64,000 bases of DNA from an uncultured Mycoplasmatota bacterium (GTDB taxonomy: Bacteria; Bacillota_I; Bacilli_A; RF39; UBA660). The DNA is taken from assembly GCA_900547775.1 (NCBI GenBank), contig URHW01000004.1, positions 4,806 through 68,805 of the forward strand. Reading direction: 5' to 3'. The translations under genes and the position numbers were made by a program. Shown here piece by piece: positions 1,704 to 64,000 of this stretch; position 1 is the first letter of the stretch; each line of letters begins with the position of its first letter. The notes under the pieces are model-generated. The model had not been told where the DNA came from. It saw only the letters and a program-made list of their open reading frames with translations, and searched no databases.

Positions 1704-3578
1704 CTATTTTACAACGTAAGGATCTTCTGAGGTGCCAGAGCCAGTTACTTCAACATTAGATGCAAGAGAAATTGATGGTCTCAAACCGATAACGGAACCA
1801 GCATAACTATAGAAAAGTTTTCCTGAACTGATGGCCCATAAGTAAGTATTAGAACCGAAATAACTAGGAGATAATGACCACCATACAGTAGTTCCTGTAT
1901 TCTCATATATATACGTAGAACGATTATAAGTATTATAAATAGAGCCAGAAAATGCTATTTCGTCTGCAGTTAATAAGCCTATTTTATAGGTTAGATTTCC
2001 ATTACCATTTGTTGTATCACTTACAGTAAATTTAGATAACTTCCCTCCATTATTATCGTCTAGACATTTTAGCGTTGGTATTTTAGTAGAAACTAATCTG
2101 ATACGCACGTCATAATTTGTAAGATCAGTTCCATATCCATGACCACTAGAAATACTTTTATCATTGCACCATATTGTATCTGCTAGTTTACTTTCATATT
2201 CAGTTAAATTATTTTTATACCAAGTTTCTAAATTTGTAAGGATTGTACTTTTATTTGTATTTGCATGCGTGCTTGCATAATCACTTGCACCAGTTGTTCC
2301 ATACATAAAACCAATATATGCGTTATCGTCATAACTTGAATTAAATGCAGTTTTATACGAATTTTCAGAATACCTTGCAAAAGCTGCTGTTTTACTATTA
2401 TTTGATGCAGAGCAAGGATTAGAAACATTAGATATATTATCATTATGGAGTACAAGTTTAATAGAACCATCACCAGTTATTCTTACTATTCTCCAACACT
2501 TATTTGCAAACTGTACGTAATTATTATTTATAGCACCTCTAAAATAATAACTAGTTCCATAATCATCTTCAGCGCTTGCTAAAATTGCCTCTGTTGTATT
2601 TTTATTGGAAGTTAATTTCTTATATACAAAACTATCTGATGTAGCACTTACTACATAATATACACTGTCTAAATTAGTTGTAGTCTGCATATCTCCTGCT
2701 GTACTTGAGCCTGTATCTGATAAATTCTGACTAGTCAAATATTTACCAACTAAACTTGAATATGAATTAGCATATGTATTATTTGTTACTGCTGTTCCGG
2801 TTAAATCAAACTTCGTACCATTTGCTGTCCACCCTGTACCATATGTTACATAATATGCTTGATATGCTGATGATACAGATGAAGTTTCACTTTCTGTGTC
2901 ATCCAAAGTATATGCACTAACTTCACTACCAGGCACTGTTAAAGGCTCTACTACTTTATTATCAGCAAGTATCGCTTCGTTAAGTGGCATTCCATCAGAT
3001 GCTTCACCAATAACTACTATCTTACCCTCCCATGATTTACCTAATCCTTGATCTAGTGTTACATTTTCATCCATCCAAAGTCTTAAATCAAAACTCTTCT
3101 CTTCATTAGCTTGTAACCCTGTATTAACAATTATATACCCTTTTCTATTATTATCTAAATCTGTTAACTTCTTACTACCTAGTACTATAGACTGTCCATC
3201 AGTAGTTCCTTTAGGTGATATATTAACCTTAATATAATTATCATCTAAATATTTTGTTCCTAAATTACCTCTATGTTCACTATCAATTGTAATATATAGT
3301 CTTATATAGCTACTACAATTATTTTTAAGTGTAAAAGTAAATGGCGTTCCTTTCAATCCTTCACTATCAACTACTGGATAAGCATTCTCTAAAACAATCT
3401 TTTCAGTGTTTTCAGTTAAACTAGTATCAAAACAAGTCCTTGATACAAGAGTATTATTATCACTTTGTTTTAAAAACAATTGAAAAAATGCATATGATAC
3501 ACCAATAATACATATCACAGTAACTAAAAGAGAAAAATAAATCCTAATCTTCTTTTTATCTTTAATAATTTCTTCCAT
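1704..3578 (-). CDS. Paralog 1 of a hypervariable-C-terminus surface protein family (membrane-anchored; DUF1566/C-type-lectin-like C-terminal domain inferred)
   Basis: N-terminal signal-anchor. The N-domain (TRTC..TLTE..PFTFTLKNNC..FDLRLW) is shared with 9959-11542 and 19816-21687. The conserved core FANKCWRIVRITGDGS..LHNDN and a C-terminal YWWSLSP..RPSISL cassette are present. Confidence 0.7.
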   Translation of the reverse strand: MEEIIKDKKKIRIYFSLLVTVICIIGVSYAFFQLFLKQSDNNTLVSRTCFDTSLTENTEKIVLENAYPVVDSEGLKGTPFTFTLKNNCSSYIRLYITIDSEHRGNLGTKYLDDNYIKVNISPKGTTDGQSIVLGSKKLTDLDNNRKGYIIVNTGLQANEEKSFDLRLWMDENVTLDQGLGKSWEGKIVVIGEASDGMPLNEAILADNKVVEPLTVPGSEVSAYTLDDTESETSSVSSAYQAYYVTYGTGWTANGTKFDLTGTAVTNNTYANSYSSLVGKYLTSQNLSDTGSSTAGDMQTTTNLDSVYYVVSATSDSFVYKKLTSNKNTTEAILASAEDDYGTSYYFRGAINNNYVQFANKCWRIVRITGDGSIKLVLHNDNISNVSNPCSASNNSKTAAFARYSENSYKTAFNSSYDDNAYIGFMYGTTGASDYASTHANTNKSTILTNLETWYKNNLTEYESKLADTIWCNDKSISSGHGYGTDLTNYDVRIRLVSTKIPTLKCLDDNNGGKLSKFTVSDTTNGNGNLTYKIGLLTADEIAFSGSIYNTYNRSTYIYENTGTTVWWSLSPSYFGSNTYLWAISSGKLFYSYAGSVIGLRPSISLASNVEVTGSGTSEDPYVVK

Positions 3579-3645
3579 CCTTTTACCCTACTTTCATAAA
3601 ATTATTATATCAAATTATTAATAATTAAAAAAGAAGAAATACAAT

Positions 3646-4260
3646 TTAATTCTTCTGTATTTCTTCAATTATTTTATAAACTTCCGTATAAGGATTAGTT
3701 TCAACCGTCTGTAGTATTCTTCCATTTTCTAATTGAAATTTTTCTAATCTTTTAGCATTAACAATTGCTTTATTTGTATTATTGCAAATCAAAGGATAAA
3801 TATCATAACTTTTATTATAACCAGCACAATGTTTTTTTAATTCTTCTATTACTTCATCATTACTGGAATATTGCGCCGTAGAATAACGATAATGCAATAA
3901 AAACCAAACCTCTACACAAGGTGCTGATACTATAGGAATAATATTATTTTCCTTTGCTAATCTTATTGCTTCACATATTTGTGAATTTTTTTCTGGCTTA
4001 ACATCCGTATCAAACATACAAAATGCTCTGTCATCACCAGTTAAGTCTAAAGATTCTTCTTTAACTTTTGCTATAGTATGCTCCACTAAACTAATTGGAT
4101 CAGTATCATTACCAGGAACTTTTCTAATCACATAATTATTATCTCTTCCATTATAATTTCCTAAGTAGATATCTTCTGTTTTATTTTTACCTTCATAAGA
4201 AACTAATATTGCTCTTTTTGATATTCTGTTTTTTCTATTTCTCTGCCTATCACTACTCAT
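3646..4260 (-). CDS. RloB-like (Toprim-like) protein, partner of AAA_21 ATPase
   Basis: 204 aa. The N-terminal R-rich segment is followed by ILVSYEGKNKTEDIYLG, resembling the RloB consensus ILIVCEGEKTE. It overlaps the upstream ATPase by 4 nt. Confidence 0.6.
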   Translation of the reverse strand: MSSDRQRNRKNRISKRAILVSYEGKNKTEDIYLGNYNGRDNNYVIRKVPGNDTDPISLVEHTIAKVKEESLDLTGDDRAFCMFDTDVKPEKNSQICEAIRLAKENNIIPIVSAPCVEVWFLLHYRYSTAQYSSNDEVIEELKKHCAGYNKSYDIYPLICNNTNKAIVNAKRLEKFQLENGRILQTVETNPYTEVYKIIEEIQKN

Positions 4261-5492
4261 AAATCAAAATTATTAGTTAAAAATGGAATTGCACCATACC
4301 TCCCTAACAAATATCCTTTCTCTACATTTTCAAGTTTTCTTACTGAGAAATCATCTAAAGGATATATTGCACTAGAACCATCATCCGGATTCTTTTCTGC
4401 AAACCAAATCTGATCTCTACGTAATATTTCTAAATTAAGTAAATTAGTATCATGTGTATTAAATATTAACTGAGCACCATTCTTATTAACTTCTGGATTA
4501 TTAAATATCTCAACCAAATACTTTACTATAAATGGATGTAAACTCTTATCAAATTCATCATAAATAAGAACCTTACCATTATCTAAAACATCTTTTAAAA
4601 CTGGTATAAAAGAAAATATAACCTGTGTTCCAAGTGATTCTTCATTAATATCAAATTCATACTTATGTCCATGAATCTCATGAACCGTACTTACTTTAAA
4701 TAAAGATGAATTTAAAGGAATAATAAACCTAAAAGTATCTGGTACTCTATTTAAAATATCTTCAGTCATCTTCTCTTCAGTAACTTTATAATCATCAATA
4801 TTAAAATCTGCTTTTTTTAAAAATCCAAGTGCAAAATCTCTTAACTTATTATCTTTATCTTTTGAATACATATTATAAGAATAATTATTTACTTGTTCAT
4901 AAGACATAATAACACCTAACTTCTCAGTTAAGAAATCAAATGCTGGTTTGGTCTTATCATAATTCCAGTTAGTTGCTGTAGCTACAAAAAATTTATTTGC
5001 TGAATTCTTACTCTTGATATCATTCAATATTCGCTCATCACTAGCATTAAAAGAATATTCATTAGTATTCTTTCTTTCAAATATCTTAGTAGGTCTACCA
5101 TTAGGATAATAATATAAGCTCTCTTCATAAACATATAAATTATCAGCACTAAAAGCATAAACATATCTTATACCATCGTATATAAATTTTATTTCAAACT
5201 CACTAGGTTTATCAGAGGTATCTTCACTTAACTTAAAAGGACTAATTGGCATTGCCATATTAGGAGTTCTGTAATTAGACCCTTTAATTATTGAACCAAC
5301 AATTGCGATTATTTTAAATAAATTAGTCTTACCAGAAGCATTAGCTCCATATAAAGCAGTAGTTCTTAAAAGCCTCTCTCCACCAACTTCCATAACATTA
5401 TTTAAAAGTTCCTTATCACTTGAAGCAACCATACTAAATGTATTCTTATCCTTAAAAGATAAAAAATTTGTAACACTAAACTCTATAAGCAT
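4257..5492 (-). CDS. AAA_21/ABC-type ATPase (OLD/PARIS-AriA-like), candidate defence ATPase
   Basis: Walker A GANASGKTNLF. The central region is long, and C-terminal Walker B/D-loop-like motifs (LIYDEFDKSLHP, FNTHD) are present. It is translationally coupled to the RloB-like gene. Confidence 0.6.
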   Translation of the reverse strand: MLIEFSVTNFLSFKDKNTFSMVASSDKELLNNVMEVGGERLLRTTALYGANASGKTNLFKIIAIVGSIIKGSNYRTPNMAMPISPFKLSEDTSDKPSEFEIKFIYDGIRYVYAFSADNLYVYEESLYYYPNGRPTKIFERKNTNEYSFNASDERILNDIKSKNSANKFFVATATNWNYDKTKPAFDFLTEKLGVIMSYEQVNNYSYNMYSKDKDNKLRDFALGFLKKADFNIDDYKVTEEKMTEDILNRVPDTFRFIIPLNSSLFKVSTVHEIHGHKYEFDINEESLGTQVIFSFIPVLKDVLDNGKVLIYDEFDKSLHPFIVKYLVEIFNNPEVNKNGAQLIFNTHDTNLLNLEILRRDQIWFAEKNPDDGSSAIYPLDDFSVRKLENVEKGYLLGRYGAIPFLTNNFDL

Positions 5493-7521: not shown

Positions 7522-9243
7522 CTACTTTACAATAAATGGATTACTACTAGTTCCATTTCCACCAATAATCTTAGCATTCTTAAGTTGTAATGTTGGTCTT
7601 ACTTTATTAGTATCAGTAACAACACTAGCAGTATCAGTACCACCACCATATGATTTATATGATCCACCAGTAGCAACTGCATAACTACTACTATTAACAT
7701 AATTATTATAAACATGAGCTTCCGGAGTACCATAGTTAAAGTTTGAAGTATCCATATTAAATCCAGTAATCTCAATTAACCAGAAATTCTTACCAGCATT
7801 ACTATTATTAGTTAAATAACTTCTATAACAATTATTACCATTACAATTAGCAACTTTACTATAATCATTCTTACTCATAAGAGCAACCTTAGTATTAAGT
7901 GATCCACCACCAAATACAGTACCAGAAATATATTGATTCTCTACATATCTAGGATTAACTGCACTATAGAAACTATTAACTACATTATCCATAGTATAAC
8001 TAAATGAACCATTCAAATTATGTCCACCTAATCCTTGATAATAATATCTTCCACCATTACAGCATCCACTATACTTACAAGCACCAACTTGTCCATAAAC
8101 TAAATCAGTTCTATTATTATAACTATAAGGATCATTAGCAATTATCTTAATACTATTACCTTTTCTATGATAAATTCTAAATACATAAGAATTATTATTA
8201 AACTTCAAATAATTACTTTCAACTTCACCTTTGTAATAACACTCATCACTCTTACCTGTTTCAGGTGTACAATCATTATTAATAAAATCAATCAAATTAT
8301 CACTAACAACATAATCTAAAGTAAATGGACTAGGAACAGAACCATCACTATTAGTCTTATTATAAGTAATTATTGCACTCTTACTACCAATTGGTTCAGT
8401 AACAAAACCTTTCATTGTAAAATCTGTAATATTATCTACAGGACTAGTAAATTCTTTCTTAGTACCATTCTTATAAGTAACAATTAATGTGACCTTAGTA
8501 TCCTTAGCCCCAAGAACTATCTTATTACCATTCTCATTTAAATAAGCCGTAAAACTATCAACATCAGTCTCACTAGCAGCAACATATACATTTCTAGTCT
8601 TACTAACACTCTTACCATTATAAGTATAAGTATAAACAACACTATAAGTACCAGCCTTAGTAACATCAACATTACAACTAGTAACCTTAATACTATCTCC
8701 CTTAACTAAAGGATAAGTCTTACTAGCATCATTTAAATCAGTTAATACTAACTTACCATACTTAGGATCACTACCATTTAAACCCTTAAACTCATTTTCT
8801 TCAGTACACCAATTACTACCACTAGCATCATAAGCTAAATAAATAGAATCAGCAACTAAATAAGTATTAGTTTCATCTGGTGGATTAAGTTCAAACTCTG
8901 TAGCACCAGTACCACCATTTAAAGTAACACGAACTATTTCATCATCTTTATACTTTTCGCTAGTTTCCTTATTAGTAATATCTTCACTAAGTAGTCCATT
9001 ACTCCTCAAATCACCAATAGTAATATCTACAAAATTATATCCTTCATATAGTTTCTCGATCTCACTCTTATTAGCACTAACATAAGCATCTGCTGCACTA
9101 AGTATCTGCTTAACTGTATCTTTATTATTCTCTTTAGGATCATTCTTACCAACCAAATTAACAATAAAAATACCAACAATAACTGCAATCAGTGCTATAA
9201 CCGCAATTATCTCTACTAATGTAAATCCTTTCTTATTCTTCAT
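7522..9243 (-). CDS. Prepilin-type N-terminal cleavage/methylation domain protein (large type IV pilin-like)
   Basis: N-terminus MKNKKGFTLVEIIAVIALIAVIV is a class III signal (G-F-T-L-V-E plus a hydrophobic helix). The C-terminal region is a 540-aa beta-rich segment. Confidence 0.75.
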   Translation of the reverse strand: MKNKKGFTLVEIIAVIALIAVIVGIFIVNLVGKNDPKENNKDTVKQILSAADAYVSANKSEIEKLYEGYNFVDITIGDLRSNGLLSEDITNKETSEKYKDDEIVRVTLNGGTGATEFELNPPDETNTYLVADSIYLAYDASGSNWCTEENEFKGLNGSDPKYGKLVLTDLNDASKTYPLVKGDSIKVTSCNVDVTKAGTYSVVYTYTYNGKSVSKTRNVYVAASETDVDSFTAYLNENGNKIVLGAKDTKVTLIVTYKNGTKKEFTSPVDNITDFTMKGFVTEPIGSKSAIITYNKTNSDGSVPSPFTLDYVVSDNLIDFINNDCTPETGKSDECYYKGEVESNYLKFNNNSYVFRIYHRKGNSIKIIANDPYSYNNRTDLVYGQVGACKYSGCCNGGRYYYQGLGGHNLNGSFSYTMDNVVNSFYSAVNPRYVENQYISGTVFGGGSLNTKVALMSKNDYSKVANCNGNNCYRSYLTNNSNAGKNFWLIEITGFNMDTSNFNYGTPEAHVYNNYVNSSSYAVATGGSYKSYGGGTDTASVVTDTNKVRPTLQLKNAKIIGGNGTSSNPFIVK

Positions 9244-9818: not shown

Positions 9819-9958
9819 AATCACCACCAATGTTGAAAACACGTACCAAAAACCTCTACTATTATTATTTATCTCTCTCGCCTGTCCGTTTGTCACTCGA
9901 AGGGTTTCTCAAAGGCTTTTGCGACTGACGATTTCGACCTTATAATTCTTTGCCCTGT

Positions 9959-11542
9959 TTACATACTTATTATGTACGGGGAACTACTGGTTCCTTCTCC
10001 GGTTACGTTGGTAGAGGGCTTAAGAGAAATCGAAGGGCGGACACCGGTGGTGCCATACACGTCGCCACTGCCGAAGCCGCCAAGGCTGCCGACAACGGCC
10101 CAAACGCGAGCGCTGTCACCACTGAAGCTGTAAGGAGACAAGGACCACCAATAATCACTAGTAGCATTTTCTTGTAAATATGTTGTAGAATTAACTAGAT
10201 TAAAAGCGTATCCAGCATATGCTAACTCATCTGCTGTTATTAAACCTATTTTTGAATTTATTTTACTTAGTTCTCCATTACATTTTAAACTAGGGCCCGT
10301 ACCTCCAGCACTTTCACTTGCGCTTACTAATCTTTGCGTAGCACCATAATATGTTTTATTTTTGCCATATCCAAAACCATTTGGTGCCATTCTCCATGGA
10401 TCAAATGTTGTATCTGTTACATTGGTTTTGTCATTGCACCATACAGTATCAGCTATTTTATCAGCATAATCTTTTAAATTATTTGTATACCAAGTTTCTA
10501 AATTAGTTAGTATTGTACTATTATTTGTATTTGCATGTGTAGCTTCATATGTACTAGAACCTGATGTTCCATACTTAAATCCTACATAAGCATTGTCATT
10601 CCAGTTTTCATTAAATTTACTTGTATATGTTGTACTAGAGTATCTTGCAAATGCTGCACTAGCACTATTATTAGCTGAATCACAAGGATTAGCTACTTTT
10701 GTAGTATTATCATTATGTAAGATAAGTTTTACTGAACCATCTCCACTAATTCTTACTATTCTCCAGCACTTATTAGCAAACTGTACATAGTTATTTGTTA
10801 CAGCTCCTCTAAAGTAGTATGATGTACCATTATTATCTTCTGCAGATGCAAGTAATGCTTCATCAGCAGTAGATACTGCTGCTCCTGGTTTAGTTATTGG
10901 AGCCTTAACTTCATTATTAGCTAATATAGTCTCTGCAAAAGTAGGTTCATCCGCAGCAACTATACTAACAACTATCTTACCTTTCCAAGTTTTATTTAAC
11001 CCTTGTTCATTAGTTGTTTCTGAATCTAACCAAAGTCTTAAATCAAAAGATTTTGCTTCTTTATTTTTAAGTCCTGTGGTTTTAAGTACATATCCTTGCG
11101 TATTAGTATCTACTTCCCCTAAAGAAAGTGTACTCAAGATTACTGAACTGCCATCATTAGTCCCTTTAGTTGATAAATTAGATTTAACATAATTATCTTT
11201 TAAATAAGCAGTGTTAGTACTAGTTCTATATTCACTAACTAGTGCTATAGTCACTTTTACATAACTATCACAATTATTAGTTAATGTAAAAGTAAATGGT
11301 GATTGTTTAAGTCCATCTTCATCACTAATTGGAAAAGCATCAGATAATACAATTTCACTTGTCTCTTCTGTTAAAGTGGTATTTAAACAAGTTCTTGTAC
11401 CAATAACATTACTATTAGTTTGAGTTTTAGTAATTCTATAATAAGCATAAGTTACTCCGATAAGTACTAATACAGTTACAAGTAACCCATATAAAATTGT
11501 TCTTTTCTTCTTTTCATTCTCTATAATATCCATTAGCCTCAC
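9959..11542 (-). CDS. Paralog 2 of the hypervariable surface protein family; putative DGR target
   Basis: Same N-domain and core as paralogs 1 and 3, without the roughly 100-aa central insertion. The C-terminal cassette at about 10030-10135 is GC-rich and NNC-codon-rich. Confidence 0.75.
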   Translation of the reverse strand: MRLMDIIENEKKKRTILYGLLVTVLVLIGVTYAYYRITKTQTNSNVIGTRTCLNTTLTEETSEIVLSDAFPISDEDGLKQSPFTFTLTNNCDSYVKVTIALVSEYRTSTNTAYLKDNYVKSNLSTKGTNDGSSVILSTLSLGEVDTNTQGYVLKTTGLKNKEAKSFDLRLWLDSETTNEQGLNKTWKGKIVVSIVAADEPTFAETILANNEVKAPITKPGAAVSTADEALLASAEDNNGTSYYFRGAVTNNYVQFANKCWRIVRISGDGSVKLILHNDNTTKVANPCDSANNSASAAFARYSSTTYTSKFNENWNDNAYVGFKYGTSGSSTYEATHANTNNSTILTNLETWYTNNLKDYADKIADTVWCNDKTNVTDTTFDPWRMAPNGFGYGKNKTYYGATQRLVSASESAGGTGPSLKCNGELSKINSKIGLITADELAYAGYAFNLVNSTTYLQENATSDYWWSLSPYSFSGDSARVWAVVGSLGGFGSGDVYGTTGVRPSISLKPSTNVTGEGTSSSPYIISM

Positions 11543-11780
11543 CTACTATAAACAATTATAAATGATAAGTATCTTTTAATCAAGGCTCTTTAATTTAATT
11601 TAATGAAAATTATAAAAAAAAGATAACTTCATGATATCAATAGTTATCTTACTTAAATCTTGCTTAAATCCTACTTAAATTAATTTTTATAATACATCTA
11701 ATTTCTTTATAATAATGAGTATTAAAACAATATTATAACTTTACCAAAAACCTACAAAATTATTTGACATTTACATTTAA

Positions 11781-11958
11781 AAGCAGCAAAAAACAGCAAA
11801 AAAGCAGCAAAAAAGCAGCAAAAAAACAGCAAAAAAACAGCAAAAAGCAGCAAAAAAGAAGCAAAAAACAGCAAAAAACAGCAAAAAGTAGCAAAAAAAC
11901 AGCAAAAAGCAGCAAAAAAACAGCAAAAAACAGCAAAAAAACAGCAAAAGTAGCAAAA
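11781..11958. repeat. Tandem A-tract repeat (about 16 units of cagcaaaaaa(c/g), 10-12 bp period)
   Basis: Direct reading. Phased A5-7 tracts lie between the stop of 11962-13632 and the promoter region of paralog 2. Confidence 0.9.
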
Positions 11959-11961
11959 CTA

Positions 11962-13632
11962 CTACTTCAATTTCCAACAAGAATGACCTGATTTATTATC
12001 ATGATAAATTTTTCCTTCTTTCTTCAATAAATCTAATAGATACCTAACTCGGCTTAGTTTAGTGCCTTCATCTAATGAATTAGGTAACTTATCTTTAAGT
12101 AAAGAAATAATTTCTTTTCTACTTGCTGAACCATATTCTTTTATATATTTAATTATTAGTTCCATATAAAACTCATTTTCTAATCCAGAATTATAAACAT
12201 ACTCTTCCTTCTTTTCTGTTAAGCTAGCAAGACTTGATGAAATATAAATGTTTGGATATCTTCCTTCAATTAAATGTTCTTTTTTTAGATAATCACTTTG
12301 CTCTTTACTTATCGTATATCTCTTTTGTAATCTATCAAGTAATATTATTGCACTAATATCTAAGTTAGTTCTTTCAAATAACAATCTACTATAATTTTCA
12401 TCAATTATTTTTCCATATAATGTTACAATAACTCGGTTAGAATTACTTAAATCATAATCAGGCATTGGAAAATATTTTTTCTTTTGAATATCATAAACTC
12501 GTTTAATTCCACTACCAACTGTATCTATCATATTCAAATTAACCATCGCACTTATTAAAAAAGGATTCCTATAATATGGAGAAGAATATCCATCTTTTAA
12601 AACGTTCTCAATTGTTTCCGGAATAAAACTGCCTTCATTTATGATCATCAATCTATCTGAATATTCAATTATATTAATGTTTCCATGAAGTCTGTAATCT
12701 TGATGAGCAATACAATTATTAATTAACTCACGAAGAATATAATTATCATACTTATCTACTTCATAAGGAAATAAAGTTGCATCACTAATCATGTATCTAT
12801 ACTTTAAATTTCTAATCTTAGATTTTATTTTATCAATATTAATAATAAAAGGTATTCCAAAATGTTCATAATCAATCACATTAAAATCATCATAAAGTTT
12901 CCACGTCATTCGTGGAATATATCCTTCCATCAAATAATCATAATCACTATTTCCTAAAAGCAACATACAAGCCATAGTTATCTTATTATTAATTGTTAAT
13001 CTTGCTTTATTTAAAAATTCAATATCAGTCAAATTATCAACTTCATCTATTAATTTATCATCTTTATGTTTAACTTTAAATTGTTCTCTAGCAACTTTAA
13101 TTGCACCTTTATCAAGATTATCTATTGTAGTTTCTTCAAGAACTTGTCTTGACCAATCATAATTTATAGTAGTTTTAATTTGTTCAATCTTATTTAGTGA
13201 TAAAGGAGATAATGATTCGCCTATTCTTCCATAAGGAAACCCTTTCCAATTAATTGGAGTTCCAGAGGCGGCTGGTACTTGAAACATTATCACTCTTTTA
13301 CCATTAACAACAATTGTATAAATTTCAATAAAACTTATATTATCCGTAGTATTATCAGAAATTTGTTTTTTCACCTTATTAAAATCATTATCTATGCAAT
13401 AATTAGTACTAGTTAACTCATGTGTTTTATCATCAACACCAAATATTATCCAAGAATAAAGTTTGTTTTTTAAATTAGCTTCATTAGCTAAAGCTGAGAA
13501 ATATTTTCCTAAGGTATCAACATCAAAATTATTCTTAGCTCTTTTAAACTCAACACATTCATTTTCAGAAACTTTTAATAGATTACTTAATATTACAAGT
13601 AGCTCCTCAGTTGTCTTATACAAACTTATCAC
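11962..13632 (-). CDS. AlbA_2 (Schlafen-like) plus HATPase_c_4-type putative transcriptional regulator
   Basis: 556 aa. The N-terminal divergent AAA-4/AlbA_2-like region (ECVEFKRAKNNFD) is followed by an ATPase-like region and a C-terminal wHTH-like tail. Confidence 0.5.
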   Translation of the reverse strand: MISLYKTTEELLVILSNLLKVSENECVEFKRAKNNFDVDTLGKYFSALANEANLKNKLYSWIIFGVDDKTHELTSTNYCIDNDFNKVKKQISDNTTDNISFIEIYTIVVNGKRVIMFQVPAASGTPINWKGFPYGRIGESLSPLSLNKIEQIKTTINYDWSRQVLEETTIDNLDKGAIKVAREQFKVKHKDDKLIDEVDNLTDIEFLNKARLTINNKITMACMLLLGNSDYDYLMEGYIPRMTWKLYDDFNVIDYEHFGIPFIINIDKIKSKIRNLKYRYMISDATLFPYEVDKYDNYILRELINNCIAHQDYRLHGNINIIEYSDRLMIINEGSFIPETIENVLKDGYSSPYYRNPFLISAMVNLNMIDTVGSGIKRVYDIQKKKYFPMPDYDLSNSNRVIVTLYGKIIDENYSRLLFERTNLDISAIILLDRLQKRYTISKEQSDYLKKEHLIEGRYPNIYISSSLASLTEKKEEYVYNSGLENEFYMELIIKYIKEYGSASRKEIISLLKDKLPNSLDEGTKLSRVRYLLDLLKKEGKIYHDNKSGHSCWKLK

Positions 13633-13737: not shown

Positions 13738-16700
13738 TTAACTCTGAGTTCCATCATTTGTTTCTACTGTTATATCATAATCTGTATCATAATAGTAATT
13801 ACTAAATAAAACATTTGAATTATTAATAACTGTTCTTATACCTAAGTCTCCTCTACCATATATAGCGTTTCTTTCAATAGATTTAACACTATCAGTTAAA
13901 GTTATTGTCTTAAGTATAATATTATTCATAAGTGCATAACTACTAATATTTTCTGCATCTATTACATATTCTAACTTCTCATAATAACTAGGAACACTTA
14001 TTAAAGTCGTACCATCCTTATTAAACAATACTCCATCTCTGCTACTATAATTATTATTATCAGCACTAACTATAAATTTATTTATATTTAGGTTTATTCT
14101 TGATTCTATACTAGTAACAGAGCTTGGCACACTTAAACTCATCTTCTTATCATCAGCACTTACTAATCCATTTAATGAGTCATATATAATTCTCGTTGTT
14201 CCTTCTCTAATTTGTACATCTCCTTCAAGTTTATCAGGAACTAAAATAAGTGTATCCCCATTATATAATATATTATTTTCTACTTCTAAAGTACTTGCTT
14301 TTATTTCTTTAAAGTTAACTCCCCTAAATGGTGCTATACCTACATAAGCATTTCCTATATCAGCACTCTTACCCTTAAAGTTATAAAACGCATAATCTCC
14401 AATAGTTTGAACACTTCTAGGAATAACAATATCACCTAAACTACTATCTATAAAAGCATAATCTCTAATATATTCTAAGCCTTCATTAAATGTTATATTA
14501 CTTAAACTAGTATTTGTACTAAAAGCATACTGCTCAATAGTTCTAACCGAACTTCCTATAGTAACACTAGTAAGACCTAAATTATTAGCAAATGCTCTCT
14601 TACCAATCTTTTCACTATTAACATTAAGCATCTTTAAACTAGTACTTTCAAAGGCCGATGTTCCAATAGATTTAACACTTGATGGAATATTAATATTAGT
14701 AATACCAGTTCCATAAAATGCATTATTACCAATACTACTAACATTATTCCCAATAACAATATTATTAATTTGGCTCGCATAATTATCCCAAGGAGCGCTT
14801 ATAAAATCTTGCATATCTCCGGTTCCATACACGCTTAATGTATAACCATTACTTCCATCTATCACTTTGTTACTATATAAAAATGCGATTACATCTTCTT
14901 TATTATTCTTACCGATCTTATAATAATTCACATATTCATGCTCTGCACTTACTATCTCACTAGTAGTACGCTTTTGATTAACTAAGCCATATATATCTCT
15001 AACTGCACCATCACTTAAAGTTAATGTAAATAGTCCATAATAATTATTTGCTTTTACCACTACTTCAAATCGGTATCCATTAGTAATATCTTTAACCTTA
15101 GTAACACTATCAACTAAAACACCATTACTAGCACTAATCATACCCTTATCAAGAGATGCACTAGCAAGTCCTCCACCAATATCCGTACATTCCAAATACG
15201 CCTTACCAGTTCCATAAATATCACTTGGTACATCAGTAAACATACAACTAGGTGCTGGATTATCTGCAATAGCATAATAAGTAGTTCCTTTATTTCTACT
15301 ATTAATTGTAACTGTACTTCCAATATTTTTAATGTTTCCACCACTAGGACTTGTACTCCATCCCTTTTTAGTTATTCCATCTGGAACACTAAAGTCAGGT
15401 AATGTAACTGTGCATCCTGAACCTAACCTACTTTCTGTACAAGTAAGTGTTGTCTCACCAAGAGTTCCATAAGTTCCCCCATTTAAATTAATTTGAAATA
15501 CATTAGTAACATATATAGGTATTCTAAGTTCTCCACAATCTGCACCTTTAATAACTAAATATGTAGTTCCAGTTCTGTATGATCTTATCTTTATCTTATC
15601 AGTAAACACCTTATTAATATTATCAGGTTCATATGAGAAATTACTTTGTGATACCACATTAACACTTGCTGTCCAACTATTACTAACACTATAACTAAGT
15701 TTGCCAGTAGCAGCATAACTAATTGTAATCTCTGCACTTTCCCTATTAACACCTAAAGTAATTGAATTTAGATTACTTTTTAAAGAATAAACATTATAAT
15801 CAAGTTCAGCAAGTCTATTACCATTATTTTCTCTTAAGTAAATAACTGCTTTACCCGTATTAGTTCTTCCTAACTTATAAGGAAGACTACTATCATACTG
15901 CGTACTAGTAACATTATGTCTTACTAATGACATCTGTCCATATCTTCCACCATTATTGGCACAATTATTACTTAAACTAATCGCTGGCTGACTAGGATTA
16001 TTACCTAAATCTACTAAATAATAATCAGTCATACTATCAAACACTATATTATTCTTCGTACTATCACAAGTCTTACCACTACTATCTAATACTCCCAAAT
16101 TAATCCCATGAATTGTAATGGTATTATTACTAAGATCAGAACCAACCTCTTTACACACTTTAGTAACCGTATTATTATTCTCTCTAAAATATAAACTTGT
16201 CTTATAAATAACTGGTATAAATATATCTAATGAGCCATCTCTTACACTCTTAACATTAACTTTAAAATCTTCTACATTATCATAAATATCTTCACCATTA
16301 GTGGTCTCTAAAATAACTGTATCATTTTCTATATGACAATTTAAATAATCAGTATTTTCTTCATATCCACCATAAGTACTTTTCTTATAAACAGTGCAAG
16401 TAAAATCATTACTAGAGCTTCCGTTTATCTTAGACTTAAACTGTGTCTTATCATTATTTTGTCTTCTTCCCCCATTAAAATATAAATATTCTGGTATATC
16501 TGTATTATCTAATTTAATATTTGAAACATTAACCTCAAAACTAGTTTCACCACAAATTGATCCTTTTATTCTAATGGTAACAGTTCCAATACTATTTCCT
16601 TTTATATAAAAGTAATTCTGATTATTTAAAGTTATTGTACTTCCAAATGAACTATTATTTGCTGATATACTAGCAGCACTACTATCAACTGATACAGTAA

Positions 16701-17769
16701 TTCTTCCTGTACCACCAGCCTTAAGTTCTACTCTCTTAGCAGCCTCACCTACAATAACATTCGTAATATGCGTTACTACATCTAAATCATAAACTTCTCT
16801 AGTTATAACCTTACTAATACCTGCATGATCTTCAGTTATCGTAAAACTTTTCTCACCTGTACTAGTACCACTATTCATATATAGAACGTCTCCCTTTATA
16901 GTAGCATTCAAATCATCACTAATCCCACTAAGAGAAAACTCGCCATAATTCTTCCCCGTAATCCTAAAAAGTTCATTAGTAAGTGTTTTCATACACATCT
17001 TAGGTGTATATCCATCTATATCATAATTAACAACATACACCCCTAAATTCATATGTCGATATAACTTCTTTTCTGCTCCTTCATCATCTCTGTATGTACC
17101 AGTTACTTGTACTTGATAATTTCCATCACTTCCAGTACCATTATCATTTAAAGTAATAACTAAATCATCACCAACAACTTTACAACTAAATGGACCTGTC
17201 GCTTCACATGTAATACTTTTAAAAGTTCCTTTAGTATAAATCTTAGTTTTAAATTCCTCATGAAGTCCCCAATAAAAATCTTTCTTTGTAGTTCCTAAAT
17301 TAAGTGAATAATTACCATCAACTGCTGGACATGAATAATTCTTATTTTTTATATCATAAAAAGTAGCACTTATCGTTACTGTAGATGGATCATAACATAA
17401 AAGAACATTACCACTGAGTCTTCCACCAGTAACTGGATTGCCAACATAACTAGCATCATCTTTAGTAGTATCATACTCTAAATAACCTAGACCTACTAAA
17501 TCATCAACACTTATTATGCACTCATCATACGCATCATCATTAATAACTCCAGATTCTAACCCATTAGTACACTTCTGATAAGTATTAATATTATCTTCAC
17601 CATACTTAGAAGCACTAGTTTCAATAGTACTAATCTTAGAATTTAAAATACTCTCTTTTGTATTTTTTGAAATATTAGTAACCGCTGGTATCAAAATAAC
17701 CATAATAATTGCAAGTATTGTAATAACTGCAAGAAGTTCCACCATTGTAAAACCCTTATGGTTCTTCAT
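13738..17769 (-). CDS. Giant prepilin-type N-terminal domain protein with Ig-like middle region and C-terminal BspA-type leucine-rich repeats
   Basis: N-terminus MKNHKGFTMVELLAVITILAIIMV is a class III signal. The C-terminal 350 aa carry repeated IPSSV.SIG..AF LRR_5-like units. Confidence 0.75.
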   Translation of the reverse strand: MKNHKGFTMVELLAVITILAIIMVILIPAVTNISKNTKESILNSKISTIETSASKYGEDNINTYQKCTNGLESGVINDDAYDECIISVDDLVGLGYLEYDTTKDDASYVGNPVTGGRLSGNVLLCYDPSTVTISATFYDIKNKNYSCPAVDGNYSLNLGTTKKDFYWGLHEEFKTKIYTKGTFKSITCEATGPFSCKVVGDDLVITLNDNGTGSDGNYQVQVTGTYRDDEGAEKKLYRHMNLGVYVVNYDIDGYTPKMCMKTLTNELFRITGKNYGEFSLSGISDDLNATIKGDVLYMNSGTSTGEKSFTITEDHAGISKVITREVYDLDVVTHITNVIVGEAAKRVELKAGGTGRITVSVDSSAASISANNSSFGSTITLNNQNYFYIKGNSIGTVTIRIKGSICGETSFEVNVSNIKLDNTDIPEYLYFNGGRRQNNDKTQFKSKINGSSSNDFTCTVYKKSTYGGYEENTDYLNCHIENDTVILETTNGEDIYDNVEDFKVNVKSVRDGSLDIFIPVIYKTSLYFRENNNTVTKVCKEVGSDLSNNTITIHGINLGVLDSSGKTCDSTKNNIVFDSMTDYYLVDLGNNPSQPAISLSNNCANNGGRYGQMSLVRHNVTSTQYDSSLPYKLGRTNTGKAVIYLRENNGNRLAELDYNVYSLKSNLNSITLGVNRESAEITISYAATGKLSYSVSNSWTASVNVVSQSNFSYEPDNINKVFTDKIKIRSYRTGTTYLVIKGADCGELRIPIYVTNVFQINLNGGTYGTLGETTLTCTESRLGSGCTVTLPDFSVPDGITKKGWSTSPSGGNIKNIGSTVTINSRNKGTTYYAIADNPAPSCMFTDVPSDIYGTGKAYLECTDIGGGLASASLDKGMISASNGVLVDSVTKVKDITNGYRFEVVVKANNYYGLFTLTLSDGAVRDIYGLVNQKRTTSEIVSAEHEYVNYYKIGKNNKEDVIAFLYSNKVIDGSNGYTLSVYGTGDMQDFISAPWDNYASQINNIVIGNNVSSIGNNAFYGTGITNINIPSSVKSIGTSAFESTSLKMLNVNSEKIGKRAFANNLGLTSVTIGSSVRTIEQYAFSTNTSLSNITFNEGLEYIRDYAFIDSSLGDIVIPRSVQTIGDYAFYNFKGKSADIGNAYVGIAPFRGVNFKEIKASTLEVENNILYNGDTLILVPDKLEGDVQIREGTTRIIYDSLNGLVSADDKKMSLSVPSSVTSIESRINLNINKFIVSADNNNYSSRDGVLFNKDGTTLISVPSYYEKLEYVIDAENISSYALMNNIILKTITLTDSVKSIERNAIYGRGDLGIRTVINNSNVLFSNYYYDTDYDITVETNDGTQS

Positions 17770-17779
17770 AAAATCACCT

Positions 17780-18806: not shown

Positions 18807-18814
18807 AATACCTC

Positions 18815-19815: not shown

Positions 19816-21687
19816 TTAATTTATAATATAAGGATTATCACTCGTACCATTACCAGTTACGCTGGTCGAAGATATAAGAGAAATGGCCGGGCGAACACCA
19901 GTGTCGCCGTCAATGTTGCCGTCGCGCAAGTCACCCGAGCGCACGCCCCGATCGAGAGTGATGATGCTATCGAAGTAGCTAGGCGACAAGGACCACCACC
20001 AATTCGTCCCAGTATTTTCTTGTAAATATGTAGAACGATTATAATAACCAGATACCGACCCAGCAAATGCTATTTCATCTGCAGTTAATAATCCTATTTT
20101 ATAAGTTAAGTTACCATTACCATTCTTTGTATCATCAACAGTAAATTTAGATAATTTTCCACCATTATTATCATTTGGACATTTTAATGTTGGCTGTTTA
20201 GTGGAATCCAATCTATTATATGCAGCATAATTTGTATACTCTGTCCCATAACCTAATCCTCCACTTACTGTACTTTTATCATTACACCAAATTGTATCAG
20301 CTAGTTTATCTTCATATGGTGCTAAATTTTTTGTATACCATATCTCCAAATTTTTTAGTATTGTACTTTTATTTGTATTTGCATGTGTACTTGCATAATC
20401 ACTTGCTCCAGCAGTACCATACATAAATCCTACATAAGCATTATCATTATGGTTTGTATTAAATGCACTTTTATATGTTTCACCAGAGTATCTTGCAAAT
20501 GCTGCATTAGTACTATTATTTGCTGATGAACAAGGATTAGCTACTTTTGTAGTATTATCATTATGAAGAACAAGTTTTACTGAACCATCGCCTGTTATTC
20601 TTACTATTCTCCAGCATTTATTAGCAAATTGTACATAATTATTTTTTACTGCCCCTCTAAAGTAGTAAGATGTTCCATAATCATCTTCTGTACTAGCAAG
20701 TAATGCTTCTGTTGTATTTTTATTTGATGTTATTTGTTTGTACGTAAAACTGCTTGATGTAGCGCTTACTACATAATATATACTGCTTAAATTAGTGGTT
20801 GTTGTCATTGATCCTGCAGTACTTGAACCAGAACTTGATAAAGAACTATATGGCAAATATTTTCCAACTAAGCTTGAATATGAATTAGCATATGTATCAC
20901 TTGTTACTGCAGTACCAGTTAAATTAAAGTTTGTCCCATTTGCTTCGTATCCAGTACCATAAGTTATATAATATGCTTGAGATGTTGATAATACACTTGT
21001 TGACTGACTTTCAACATCATCTTTAGTATGAGCATTTACTTCTTTTCCTGGTGTTGTAAGTGGTGATTTTATCTCGTTATTTGCAAGTATTGCATCTTTC
21101 AATGTAACCTCTTCATTAGCAGCTACTCCAACAACGACTATCTTACCTTCCCAGTTCTTATTAAGTCCATCTGCAATAGATGTTTCACCATCCATCCATA
21201 CTCTTAAATCGTAACTTTTCTCTTCATTTGCTTTAAGTCCAGTAGTTACTAAAATATAACCTTTATTTGTGCCTTCCAATTCAGTTAAAGTCTGACTTCC
21301 AAGAAGCACGGAAGAGCCATCAGTCGTTCCTTTGCTAGATAAATTAACTTTTAAAAAACTATCCTTTAAGTATGCTACATCAGTACTTGTTCTATACTTA
21401 CTATCAATCGTAATATACACTTTAACATAACTATCACAATTATTTTTTAAAGTGAATGTAAATGGTGTTTGTTTAAGACCATCTTCATCACTTATCGGAA
21501 AAGCATCACTTAAAGTTATTTTAGATGTTTCTTCAGTAAGCGTTGCATCTAAACAAGTTCTAGTTCCAATAACATTACTATTAGTTTGCGTTAATTTCAA
21601 TCTAAACCAAGCATAACTTACACCCATAAAAACAACTAAAGTTATAAGTAATCCATAATAAATTTTTATTTTCTTTTTATCTTCCAT
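19816..21687 (-). CDS. Paralog 3 of the hypervariable surface protein family; putative DGR target
   Basis: Full-length architecture like paralog 1. The C-terminal cassette at about 19890-19985 is GC-rich and NNC-rich. Confidence 0.75.
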   Translation of the reverse strand: MEDKKKIKIYYGLLITLVVFMGVSYAWFRLKLTQTNSNVIGTRTCLDATLTEETSKITLSDAFPISDEDGLKQTPFTFTLKNNCDSYVKVYITIDSKYRTSTDVAYLKDSFLKVNLSSKGTTDGSSVLLGSQTLTELEGTNKGYILVTTGLKANEEKSYDLRVWMDGETSIADGLNKNWEGKIVVVGVAANEEVTLKDAILANNEIKSPLTTPGKEVNAHTKDDVESQSTSVLSTSQAYYITYGTGYEANGTNFNLTGTAVTSDTYANSYSSLVGKYLPYSSLSSSGSSTAGSMTTTTNLSSIYYVVSATSSSFTYKQITSNKNTTEALLASTEDDYGTSYYFRGAVKNNYVQFANKCWRIVRITGDGSVKLVLHNDNTTKVANPCSSANNSTNAAFARYSGETYKSAFNTNHNDNAYVGFMYGTAGASDYASTHANTNKSTILKNLEIWYTKNLAPYEDKLADTIWCNDKSTVSGGLGYGTEYTNYAAYNRLDSTKQPTLKCPNDNNGGKLSKFTVDDTKNGNGNLTYKIGLLTADEIAFAGSVSGYYNRSTYLQENTGTNWWWSLSPSYFDSIITLDRGVRSGDLRDGNIDGDTGVRPAISLISSTSVTGNGTSDNPYIIN

Positions 21688-38155: not shown

Positions 38156-38231
38156 TGGTGCTGAAAATAGGACTTGAACCTACAACCTACGCGTTACGAG
38201 GGCGTTGCTCTACCTATTGAGCTATTTCAGC
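38156..38231 (-). tRNA. tRNA-Thr (anticodon CGU), CCA encoded
   Basis: Manual cloverleaf: acceptor GCTGAAA, D-arm GCTC/GAGC, anticodon loop CTCGTAA, T-arm GTAGG-TTCAAGT-CCTAT, 3' CCA. Confidence 0.7.
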
Positions 38232-47755: not shown

Positions 47756-49045
47756 CTAATTTACAACATAAGGTTTTTCCCTCGTACCATTTCCGGTTAC
47801 GTTGGTCGTCGATTTAAGAGAAATCGAAGGACGAAGCCCGTAGGCGTTGCTCACGTTGAAGCCGACACCTTGTCCGCCAATGCCCCAAACGCTAGCGTTG
47901 CCGCCACGGAAGCCGTCAGGAGACAAAGACCACCAATAAGTGGCTGTAGCATTTTCTTGTAAATATGTTGTAGATACATTTTTATTATAAGCATATCCTG
48001 CAAACGCTAGTTCATCTGCTGTTATTAATCCTACTTTTGATGTTATTTTACTTAGTTCTCCATTACATTTTAAACTAGGGCCCGTGCCTCCAGCACTACC
48101 ACTAGTACCTACTAATCTCTTGGTAGCGCCATAATATGTTTTATTTGTACCATATCCTAATCCAGTTGCATTTCCACCATATGACCATGGATTATAACTT
48201 GTATCTGTTACATTTGTTTTATCATTACACCATATACTATTATCTATTACACTTTCATATGCTGTTAGATTATTATTATACCATGTTTCTAAATTAGTTA
48301 GTATTGTACTCTTATTAGTGTTTGCATGTGTAGCTTCATATGTACTAGAGCCTGGTGTTCCATACTTAAATCCTACATAAGCATTATCATAATAGTTTGT
48401 ATTAAATGCACTTTTATATGTTTCACCAGAGTATCTTGCAAATGCTGCACTTGCACTATTATTTGCAGCATCACAAGGATTAGCTGCTCCAGTTGGATTA
48501 TCATTATGTAAGATAAGTTTTACTGAACCATCTCCACCAATTCTAACTATTCTCCAGCACTTATTAGCAAATTCTACATAGTTATTTGTTACTGCACCTC
48601 TAAAGTAATAAGATGTTCCATAATCATCTTCTGCAGATGCAAGTAATGCTTCATCAGCAGTAGATACTGCTGCTCCTGGTGTGGTTATTGGAGTCTTTAC
48701 TTCATTATTTGCAAGTATTTTATCTTTAAATTTCAGATTAAATGAAACATTGCACCTCACATTACCAGCACTTATATCATTAAAAGACACTACCCATTTT
48801 GTGCCATTCCATGTAGCCTTTGCTCCTGCGTCTTGTTTTATTCCATTTCTAGTACACTCTACAGTTGCCATATACTTATTTGTAGTTGGAAATGTAGTAC
48901 TAGCTTTTCCATCAATAACAGCTGCTATGATAGGTCCATTATTATCTTCTAGTAAATCTTTTTTATCACTTTTACCATATATAAACATTCCAGAAATAAT
49001 TATCGTGCATACAATAATTAAACTAATTATTTTCTTCATATTCAT
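47756..49045 (-). CDS. Paralog 4 of the hypervariable surface protein family (distinct short N-domain); putative DGR target
   Basis: Shares the core (FANKCWRIVRIGGDGS) and C-terminal cassette. The N-terminal 110 aa are different. The cassette at about 47830-47925 is GC-rich and NNC-rich. Confidence 0.75.
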   Translation of the reverse strand: MNMKKIISLIIVCTIIISGMFIYGKSDKKDLLEDNNGPIIAAVIDGKASTTFPTTNKYMATVECTRNGIKQDAGAKATWNGTKWVVSFNDISAGNVRCNVSFNLKFKDKILANNEVKTPITTPGAAVSTADEALLASAEDDYGTSYYFRGAVTNNYVEFANKCWRIVRIGGDGSVKLILHNDNPTGAANPCDAANNSASAAFARYSGETYKSAFNTNYYDNAYVGFKYGTPGSSTYEATHANTNKSTILTNLETWYNNNLTAYESVIDNSIWCNDKTNVTDTSYNPWSYGGNATGLGYGTNKTYYGATKRLVGTSGSAGGTGPSLKCNGELSKITSKVGLITADELAFAGYAYNKNVSTTYLQENATATYWWSLSPDGFRGGNASVWGIGGQGVGFNVSNAYGLRPSISLKSTTNVTGNGTREKPYVVN

Positions 49046-63239: not shown

Positions 63240-64000
63240 TTATTGTACTACATATGGTTCTTCTGAAGTACCAGAACCGATTACTGTAATTGATGGTGAC
63301 AAACTTATTGCTGGGCGTACTCCGATTTCGTCACTCACACTATCATTAAGCAACATGCCGTCAATAACAAGCCAAACGCATGGCATATTTCCCAAATCAG
63401 AATCAGGAGACAACAGCCACCAATAATCATCAGTAGCATTTTCTTGTAAATAAGAACCAGCTCCAATTAAATTATATGCGTACCCAGCAAATGCTACCTC
63501 ATCTGCGGACAATAAACCTATCTTTGTTGTTACTTTACTTAAAGTACCATTACATTTCAAACTCGGACCAGTACCACCAGTACTACCACCACCATTAACT
63601 AATCGTTTAGTGGGATTATAATAAGTTACATTTTCACCATAACCCAAACCAGTTGGATTCCAACCCCATGGATCATATGTCAAATCTGTCACAATACTTT
63701 TATCATTACACCATACCGTGTCAGCAATTTTACTTTCATAAGTTAATAAATTATTATTATACCATTTTTCTAAACTGGTAAGTATCGTACTTTTATTTAT
63801 GTTTTCATGAGTTTCAGCGTAACTAGTAGAGTATGGCGTTCCATACATAAAGCCTATGCCAGCATTATCATCAGAGATTTCATTAAATTGACTTACATAT
63901 GAAGTTCCAGAATATCTTGCAAACGCTGAAGTTGTACTATTACTAGAAGAAGAGCACGGGTTTGAAACATTTGAAGTATTATCATTATGAAGCACTAATT
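63240..64000 (-). CDS. Paralog 5 (C-terminal part; gene continues beyond window) of the hypervariable surface protein family
   Basis: Shares the LHNDN..NPC..AAFARYS core. The C-terminal cassette is degenerate (WLLSP, MPCVWLVIDGMLLND). Confidence 0.65.
   Translation of the reverse strand, partial: LVLHNDNTSNVSNPCSSSSNSTTSAFARYSGTSYVSQFNEISDDNAGIGFMYGTPYSTSYAETHENINKSTILTSLEKWYNNNLLTYESKIADTVWCNDKSIVTDLTYDPWGWNPTGLGYGENVTYYNPTKRLVNGGGSTGGTGPSLKCNGTLSKVTTKIGLLSADEVAFAGYAYNLIGAGSYLQENATDDYWWLLSPDSDLGNMPCVWLVIDGMLLNDSVSDEIGVRPAISLSPSITVIGSGTSEEPYVVQ

Follow-up and report, generated by a model that had tools for sequence, protein, structure and literature searches.

The 64,000-nucleotide (nt) stretch of DNA studied here, called the window below, comes from an uncultured Mycoplasmatota bacterium (GenBank assembly GCA_900547775.1, contig URHW01000004.1, positions 4,806 to 68,805) and has a GC content of 29.8%. 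It contains five paralogous genes, P1 to P5, all on the minus strand, which we discuss as a family of putative targets of diversity-generating retroelements (DGRs). In a DGR a reverse transcriptase (RT) copies a template repeat (TR) with errors at adenines, and the cDNA replaces a variable region (VR), guided by its 3' boundary; the prototype is Bordetella phage BPP-1 with brt, avd, the TR and the variable region of Mtd. The five proteins share one C-terminal layout: WW(S/L)LSP is followed by 26-29 codons, then by G(V/L)RP(S/A)ISL and about 20 more codons. A preliminary description, made from the sequence alone, had taken the family for DGR targets on the basis of codon patterns and had singled out P1 and P5 as copies with cassettes of native composition that are apparently no longer diversified. 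The codons which it quoted for P1 and P4 and the WLLSP of P5 (in full WWLLSP) are present on the minus strand. The features are as follows; A-type and B-type refer to two kinds of template described below, and NNC stands for any codon ending in C.

P1 gene, 1704..3578, minus strand: 624 aa; N-terminal signal/anchor; C-terminal DUF6273-like domain
P1 motif, 1764-1883, minus strand: exact limits
P1 cassette, 1788..1865, minus strand: 26 codons, SYFGSNTYLWAISSGKLFYSYAGSVI; GC 0.36; near-native composition; frozen
P1 3' flank, 1704..1787, minus strand: GGT TTG AGA CCA TCA ATT TCT CTT GCA ...; degraded region resembling an initiation of mutagenic homing (IMH) site
P2 gene, 9959-11542, minus strand: VR at 10022..10150, A-type, GC 0.64, NNC-rich
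P3 gene, 19816-21687, minus strand: VR at 19876..19998, B-type, GC 0.59; 15 of 17 variable codons are NNC
P4 gene, 47756-49045, minus strand: VR at 47816..47935, A-type, GC 0.63; 3 codons shorter than the TR
P5 gene, 63240..64000, minus strand: cut by the window end; full length 624 aa in L095, a second locus from the window's own strain
P5 motif, 63300-63422, minus strand: exact limits; WWLLSP DSDLGNMPCVWLVIDGMLLNDSVSDEI GVRPAISL
P5 cassette, 63324..63404, minus strand: 27 codons, DSDLGNMPCVWLVIDGMLLNDSVSDEI; GC 0.41; near-native composition; frozen
P5 3' flank, 63240..63323, minus strand: GGA GTA CGC CCA GCA ATA AGT TTG TCA ...; degraded IMH-like region

P5 matches Pfam PF19789 (DUF6273) with 27.9 bits (cutoff 23.5). 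P3 and P4 stay below the threshold (E ~0.01), while many homologs are annotated as PF19789; P1 and P2 give no direct match to DUF6273 and are 59-66% identical to other paralogs. A PDB profile search returned nothing meaningful, and an AlphaFold2 model of P1 residues 330-624 (the C-terminal 295 aa; 88 sequences) had a mean predicted local distance difference test score (pLDDT) of 44.7, which is too low for a fold search. In the literature (PMC10743442, PMC11792537), DUF6273 is a C-type-lectin-like domain whose C-terminal end holds DGR variable regions. The paralogs are probably secreted or surface proteins, in which a C-terminal DUF6273 domain, with the C-type-lectin-like fold taken from the literature, would hold the DGR VR.

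Composition and 3' boundaries of the cassettes

Over the whole window, the GC content of 90-nt segments has a mean of 0.298 and a standard deviation of 0.058. Values of at least 0.5 occur at only three places in the 64 kb, namely at 9961-10177 (P2), 19831-20028 (P3) and 47772-47971 (P4), with maxima of 0.63-0.69 in the respective cassettes (z 5.8-6.7). Analyzed in blocks of 10 codons, the cassettes of P2, P3 and P4 have a GC content of 0.50-0.70 and 5-7 NNC codons per block, and A is scarce. The corresponding GC values are 0.33-0.40 for P1 and 0.40-0.50 for P5, and both have 0-3 NNC codons per block. This contrast in composition between P2-P4 and P1/P5 is real and far beyond chance. The codons of the P1 cassette read GGT TCT AAT ACT TAC TTA TGG GCC ATC AGT TCA GGA AAA CTT TTC TAT ...; relative to the GC-rich P2-P4, the cassettes of P1 and P5 are near native, as had been claimed, but they are not fully native, since their 3' ends peak at GC 0.44-0.47 (z 2.5-2.9). 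Their share of NNC codons (0.27 in P1, 0.19 in P5) lies at the top of the range among the low-GC cassettes of the family (about 0.0-0.23). The cassettes of the family form a continuum, which includes intermediate compositions.

The 3' flanks were scored over the 72 nt from the G-(V/L)-R-P codons onward with reference to 40 distinct GC-rich cassettes of the family, in which 42 positions are at least 80% conserved. The result is listed together with that for the 5' side.

P4: 3' flank 42/42; 5' side 34/34
P2: 3' flank 41/42; 5' side 34/34
P3: 3' flank 41/42; 5' side 34/34
P1: 3' flank 32/42; 5' side 28/34
P5: 3' flank 29/42; 5' side 32/34

P1 and P5 have lost 10-13 of the 42 conserved flank positions. 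In P1 the triplets AGA CCA TCA stand where CGY CCT TCG is expected, in line with the drift at synonymous sites that had already been pointed out for this flank; the flank of P4 reads CGT CCT TCG ATT TCT CTT AAA. In P5 the codons ATT TCT CTT are recoded as ATA AGT TTG with the amino acids unchanged. The same difference is seen in the 15 nt at the 3' end of the templates (GGN NTN CGN CCN NNN). Here P2-P4 show 0-1 mismatch to the nearest template variant, while P1 and P5 show 5 each, all of them toward A/T at synonymous sites. The preliminary description had named its own test beforehand: it would be refuted if the flanks of P1 and P5 fitted the 3' end of the template no worse than those of P2-P4. 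They fit it much less well on both counts, and the interpretation survives. P1 and P5 hence lack the conserved 3' boundary with an IMH-like flank that is a mark of an active VR, the homing role of this flank being putative. A conserved hairpin downstream of the VR was also considered. By eye, the ACCAG-CGTAA-CTGGT repeat of the B-type flanks is not conserved in the A-type flanks, and such a hairpin is not claimed.

The templates used for these comparisons were taken from sister genomes and metagenome contigs and are not proven to be the window strain's own. They are of two types. The type A template, to which P2 and P4 correspond, is 33 codons long from SP to RP, contains ...GGC AGC AAT GGC AAC TTC... 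and ends GTY CGY CCT T, followed by ATTTTCTCTTAAAT. The type B template, which corresponds to P3, has 31 codons, contains ...TCG GGC AAC TTG... and ends CGN CCK GYC A, followed by ATTTCTCATAC. An active VR should match its template at all non-adenine positions, and this is where P1 and P5 fail: the gapless alignment of P5 with the B-type TR has 29 non-A mismatches in 59 positions, and that of P1, which requires a gap of one codon, has 28 in 58. The value for P3 is 6 in 59.

The VRs of P3 and P4 have peculiarities of their own. In P3 four scaffold residues (G, A, V and W) are changed at non-adenine template positions (GGC->AGC, GCT->ACT, GTT->GAT, TGG->CGG). These residues are kept by every template and by almost every VR; the flanks of P3 are intact, and its VR recurs in two other samples. 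The cassette of P4 is without three codons (a 9-nt deletion with reference to the A-type template) and contains the native-type codons GGA CAA.

Variation among strains and the retroelement

The 120 best protein matches of P2, which are 82-98% identical and not restricted to one species, have cassettes that are almost all different, in a fixed scaffold xxFxGxxAxVWxVxGSxGxF....V....GVRPSISL. Two syntenic loci from the same species (L080 and L081), with about 96-97% nt identity to window positions 1-20193, allow a direct comparison. The P2 VR differs from these two loci in 20-24% of its nt. The P1 cassette shows 0 differences in 120 nt, and the P1 gene is 0.7-1.5% different. In the P2 VR of the three strains, the window's own among them, variation affects 27 of the 35 TR-adenine positions and 9 of the 64 others (Fisher p = 5e-10).

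The same exact P1 protein is found on 83 contigs. Its 90% cluster has 131 members and occurs on well over 150 contigs, and the six full-length P1 variants listed differ at 3-7 residues, none of which is in the cassette. The DNA tail of P1 is identical in three further samples, represented by short contigs of 2-4 kb that were reached via peptidase and IleRS proteins. The exact P3 protein is found on 4 contigs and forms a cluster with one member; exact-protein look-ups for P2 and P4 gave none on record.

P4 and P5 were compared in ten conspecific loci that are anchored on rpsD and span both genes. At the P4 locus the cassette is a different one in 9 of the 10 strains, the exception being L095, the window's own strain. 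The P5 allele of the window recurs with 0 cassette differences in L091, L094 and L095, i.e. in four strains including the window, and the adjacent ileS differs by 0.7-1.7% in L091 and L094. In the other strains the P5 locus carries GC-rich cassettes of the A-type or B-type, which are all different. In L001 the ortholog of P3 carries another VR, equal in length. The contigs BAEC15-1_SAMEA2579954 scaffold_5 and JGI Ga0169220_100145 belong to the window's own strain.

P1 and P5 are therefore static, just as the statement that they are no longer diversified had implied, and variation of the DGR kind is seen in P2 and in the alternative alleles that occupy the P4 and P5 loci. Neither P1 nor P5 shows hypervariability confined to template adenines. 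P2-P4 have the properties of active-type VRs: the variation of P2 is adenine-specific, the cassettes of P3 and P4 differ between strains, all three cassettes are rich in NNC codons and poor in A, and the flanks are intact. Some pairs of VRs (P0002 and the P2 of the window; L001 and the P0141 type) share their 3' two-thirds exactly and differ solely in the 5' third. Partial replacement through 3'-primed cDNA would give the opposite pattern; a possible cause is allelic recombination within the VR.

No TR or RT was detected in the window. A relaxed blastn of each paralog 3' end against the 64 kb retrieved only the five paralogs, a regular expression for the TR core found none beyond them, and tblastn with the RT, Avd-like and MutS_I-like proteins of relatives likewise gave nothing beyond the paralogs. 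Complete DGRs are present in relatives. A scan of species-representative genomes with P2 yielded 69 loci, nearly all from uncultured human-gut Bacilli (formerly labelled Tenericutes), whose genomes often hold more than 15 paralogs each. At four of these relatives' loci the stop of the paralog is followed, 340-500 nt downstream, by a second copy of the cassette that is rich in A, and over 98-119 nt the mismatches between TR and VR are at TR adenines in 17/17, 16/17, 19/19 and 21/22 cases. The proposal that the family consists of DGR targets is supported in this way, as complete DGRs adjoin paralogs in relatives.

The gene order in the relatives' DGRs is target with VR, TR, MutS_I-like open reading frame (ORF), Avd-like ORF and RT. 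The first ORF, between the TR and the Avd-like gene, has 120-139 aa and matches MutS domain I (E 1e-7 to 4e-6); it is present in every DGR cassette of the lineage (L031 1441-1803, L033 2883-3302, L082-L086). The second has 115-117 aa. Its sole NCBIfam match, obtained with the 117-aa ORF of L031, is DGR Avd NF033474 with E 1.3e-6, which is below the curated cutoff; the same ORF matches bAvd weakly. The third is an RT (RVT_1) of 365-369 aa. Two examples are the following.

L031 RT, 2128-3225: RVT_1, 9e-12
L033 RT, 3643-4752: same cassette layout, as also in L082-L086

In all, DGR loci were recorded in L011, L031, L033, L029 and L082-L086, with 14 further TR loci from a metagenome scan for the TR core pattern, none of them on a contig overlapping the window. 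The five metagenome contigs L082-L086 carry an A-type DGR in a chromosomal context (Band_7, target, TR, MutS_I, Avd, RT, Mbeg1-like, ToxN, polC). The DGRs of relatives occupy other chromosomal sites, near polC or htpG, outside the span of the window. RT homologs with at least 89% identity to the A-type RT (P0256-P0280) occur only on contigs of 2-29 kb, and these have no sequence in common with the window. Such contigs are very frequent in samples of the same kind, with 613 members in one RT cluster, and the host genomes otherwise assemble as contigs of 0.2-1 Mb. Repeats may break the assemblies at the DGR, and genome bins are probably often without it.

Possible traces of such elements are seen at two paralog loci. 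The 120-nt segment that follows the P2 stop (9839-9958), with a raised GC content of 0.41-0.44, shares 84% identity with the beginning of the spacer between VR and TR in the DGR of L031; the 3' module of P2 may have been copied from, or once have stood beside, a DGR cassette. Two of the 14 TR loci are TR::VR hybrids at the P5 locus. They lie in L101 (2461-2700) and, on the minus strand, in L109 (near position 2720 of its reverse complement), both from strains of the same species. The order there is a B-type target gene, the usual spacer, the 5' portion of a TR, a VR-type 3' flank (…NPYKVV stop) and then directly the T-box leader of ileS, with no RT present. This arrangement looks like an ectopic recombination of TR and VR.

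We conclude, with a probability of about 0.8, that P1 and P5 are non-diversified members of a DGR-target family and that P2-P4 have been rewritten by DGRs. The explanation would be the following. Two types of DGR, A and B, each with its own TR, Avd-like and MutS_I-like ORFs and RT, would reside elsewhere in the chromosome of this lineage. In keeping with the established mechanism of DGRs, the RT would make errors at adenines when it copies the AAC-rich template, and its cDNA product would replace a stretch of about 119 nt, from TGGTGGTCYTTGTCNCCT to CGYCCNK, in any paralog with matching ends. The elements would thus act in trans on dispersed paralogs, provided that these keep both homology ends and the downstream flank. 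Such rewriting results in cassettes like those of P2-P4, which are rich in GC and NNC codons and poor in A within a genome of 30% GC. P1 and P5 have the same cassette architecture, which can be aligned codon for codon with the B-type template, but are no longer template-like at the DNA level. Their boundary (CGY CCK ...) and flank are recoded with synonymous codons ending in A or T; they would therefore not be recognised, and the sequence of the binding site would be fixed. Both would evolve by ordinary mutation and by recombination between paralogs alone. The loss of the flank would be the cause, and not the consequence, of their not being targeted, and the window strain would still carry a working DGR.

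Several observations weigh against the last point, and against ongoing rewriting of P2-P4 in general. The cassettes of P3 and P4 are identical in other samples of the same strain. With reference to the available templates, P2-P4 have 6-9 non-adenine mismatches each, as compared to 0-1 in cognate pairs and to 1-2 in the best-fitting VRs of other conspecific strains; the window strain may have other templates, or its VRs may not have been rewritten for some time. One could therefore argue that the whole window is dead with respect to DGRs, the strain having lost its retroelements, and that P2-P4 are younger fossils than P1 and P5 in a single series of decay. The fact that TR and RT were not found in the 64 kb, the broken scaffold of P3, the deletion in P4 and the remnants of TR and VR recombination in the species all fit this scenario. 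It is, however, an unlikely one in view of the intact flanks of P2-P4 (41-42/42), the abundance of RT contigs in the same kind of samples and the position of the relatives' DGRs at sites which the window does not cover. The earlier suggestion of an ongoing targeting of those copies that keep an intact flank is borne out at the level of the species; in the window strain itself such targeting is conjectural.

GC-rich cassettes could also arise with no retroelement, by horizontal import or by gene conversion from a GC-richer donor which P1 and P5 escaped, and gene conversion between paralogs is indeed active, as 1150 nt of P1 have been copied into the P5 locus. This model is effectively refuted: relatives have templates with AAC at exactly the variable codons, adjoining RT and Avd and with mismatches at adenines only, and the variation between conspecific strains is adenine-specific.

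Origin of the P1 and P5 cassettes

The preferred reading, in which P1 and P5 are the non-diversified members of the family, is compatible with two histories: they may be retired targets or may never have been targeted. Among the signs of a former VR are the codons of P1. At 15 of the 16 template AAY positions P1 has a codon ending in a pyrimidine (NNY; background 57%, p = 0.0015). Five of these 15 codons still end in C, as compared to a genome background of 5% (p = 8e-4), and the other ten are the T-ending synonyms, which gives third bases of 5C/10T/1A at the AAY codons. In addition, the length of P1 and P5 is exactly that of the B-type (27 codons, or one fewer). In a sister species (L005, 80% aa identity) the syntenic ortholog of P1 has a B-type cassette with a GC content of 0.52, which resembles a VR of this locus that was frozen more recently. 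This cassette (L005 19671-19799) is two codons longer than TR-B, includes GAA, AGA and TCA codons and recurs in several protein clusters and contigs (proteins P0125, P0129, P0130).

If, on the contrary, neither P1 nor P5 ever served as a DGR target, both would retain an ancestral domain of native composition, and the template and the targeted copies would be later derivatives of it. Many cassettes with a low GC content and this scaffold (A.VW.V, G, L) are found in more distant genomes. Because the scaffold residues are structural and also occur in the low-GC cassettes of these distant relatives, a codon-for-codon alignment with the TR does not prove a former VR. Furthermore, the NNY and NNC signals of P5 are weak (p = 0.08 and 0.03), and the switch of serine codon family in its flank (TCT to AGT) needs several steps and implies a long divergence. 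These findings all speak against retirement. A history without targeting has difficulty, on the other hand, in explaining the pyrimidine-ending codons and the residual NNC excess of P1, the NNC shares of P1 and P5, which are the highest among low-GC cassettes, their B-type length, and the VR-type cassettes in the sister-species ortholog of P1 and in the other alleles at the P5 locus.

The comparison with the sister species also argues against retirement by gradual decay. The window and the sister species share 89-92% identity as far as the edge of the P1 cassette at position 1865 and cannot be aligned beyond it. The abrupt end of identity at this position indicates that P1 differs by the replacement of a module and not by gradual decay since the sister split. 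A simple amelioration of P1 in place since the separation of the two species was rejected, as the cassette does not align at all in a gene with about 92% identity elsewhere.

A mosaic gene is present at the P5 locus in L111 and L112 (10001-11869). It is about 55% identical to P1 over the first 720 nt and 98-100% identical over the remaining 1150 nt, which include the frozen cassette. The copied cassette has four differences from that of P1 (N to I, L to I, F to C and S to P); 4 are nonsynonymous and 0 synonymous, and they are not adenine-specific. Recombination between paralogs, not only decay in place, has shaped P1 and P5. The preliminary view of these cassettes as ameliorated, i.e. once diversified and then decayed in place, is moderately supported; the replacement of the P1 module relative to the sister species and the exchange of modules between paralogs run counter to it. 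Because of this recombination and the mixed evidence, we lean only slightly towards P1 and P5 having once been diversified, and regard a history in which they were never targeted as the less probable of the two.

A tentative extension, which we would not expect to be correct, is that the P1 cassette is a binding site evolved by a DGR, which was locked in by synonymous recoding of the boundary, swept to near fixation and was copied into other paralog loci such as the P5 locus in L111 and L112. On the same doubtful assumption, the copy of the P1 module in these two loci would now change solely by nonsynonymous point mutations. If true, the family would be a natural record of a full DGR life cycle, in which a site is recruited, diversified, selected, retired and redistributed.

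Genomic neighbourhood, known systems and significance

The window contains a sixth, distant relative of the paralogs.

Sixth relative, 7522..9243, minus strand: prepilin-type N-terminus and the same kind of C-terminal domain (…FWLIE…KVRPTLQL); cassette of native composition

Its product matches Pfam N_methyl and ComGC-like NCBIfam families. Together with 13738-19735, the gene belongs to a cluster of prepilin-type (N_methyl) genes that is flanked by P2 and P3. This pilin-like cluster includes a 1343-aa protein of the BspA type with leucine-rich repeats and a pilin N-terminus, as well as a 573-aa pilin-fused protein with a C-terminal domain of the same kind as in the paralogs. A role of the paralogs as adhesins linked to a Com-like type IV filament is possible.

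Other elements were seen in the neighbourhood. A defence-type module, consisting of an AAA_21 ATPase and a RloB-like protein (3646-5492), lies between P1 and an arylsulfotransferase gene and is kept in conspecific strains. The T-box leader of ileS (62994-63195, minus strand; 97.7 bits) is located directly downstream of P5, and a single tRNA gene is found at 38159-38231 (minus strand). A tandem repeat, in which a unit of 10-11 nt (AAAAACAGCA[A]) occurs about 16 times, occupies 11779-11949, between an AlbA_2/HATPase gene (11962-13632) and P2, 240-400 nt upstream of the P2 start. Few regions diverge more between strains of the species; the repeat may be of the variable-number type and affect the expression of P2.

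In the relatives, the elements resemble the DGR of BPP-1 in several respects. A TR/VR pair of about 119 nt lies at the 3' end of the target gene, the mismatches are nearly all at TR adenines, and the template is built from AAC codons; a GC-rich 3' boundary is followed by a VR-specific IMH-like flank, and an Avd-like protein and an RT are present. They differ from it in that they are chromosomal and not phage-borne, combine two template types with numerous dispersed (remote) targets in each small genome, and contain an extra ORF with a MutS_I domain between TR and Avd. The window itself holds targets only, of which P1 and P5 do not have the properties of a VR.

With the DUF6273 targets of gut phages, i.e. 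the tentaclins (PMC10743442) and the targets of Faecalibacterium prophages (PMC11792537), the family shares the Pfam domain and the position of the VR at its C-terminal end. In contrast to these, the domain is here the end of large cellular proteins (430-650 aa) with signal or anchor N-termini, located beside a type IV pilin-like cluster, and one relative (7522-9243) is fused to a prepilin N-terminus. In cyanobacteria, e.g. Nostoc all3226, dispersed paralogs with a C-type lectin (CLec) domain show graded TR/VR homology, some of them without a nearby RT, and remnant homology has been read as a possible removal of diversification once a good variant had been selected (PMC7517822). Our family is similar in having remote targets together with degenerate, non-targeted paralogs. 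It belongs, however, to another phylum and has another domain subfamily and other N-terminal partners, and here the population data directly show two frozen copies beside varying ones. This kind of DGR evolution has thus already been described, and DUF6273 is known as a target domain from gut phages. The new details are the host lineage, the combination of two templates with many cellular paralogs by a pilin-like cluster, and the demonstration at the population level.

Nothing in these results alters the known mechanism of DGRs. They provide a natural example of how a DGR chooses among paralogs, in which copies with an intact boundary and flank vary between strains and recoded copies are fixed. 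With hundreds of contigs from human-gut metagenomes, the family could help to establish which sequences in cis are required for homing to remote targets. It could also show for how long retired VRs keep an NNC signature in an AT-rich genome and whether the frozen variants are selected. Finally, the results draw attention to a very abundant uncultured gut lineage with small genomes, whose surface repertoire, located beside a type IV pilin-like cluster, is driven by two DGRs.

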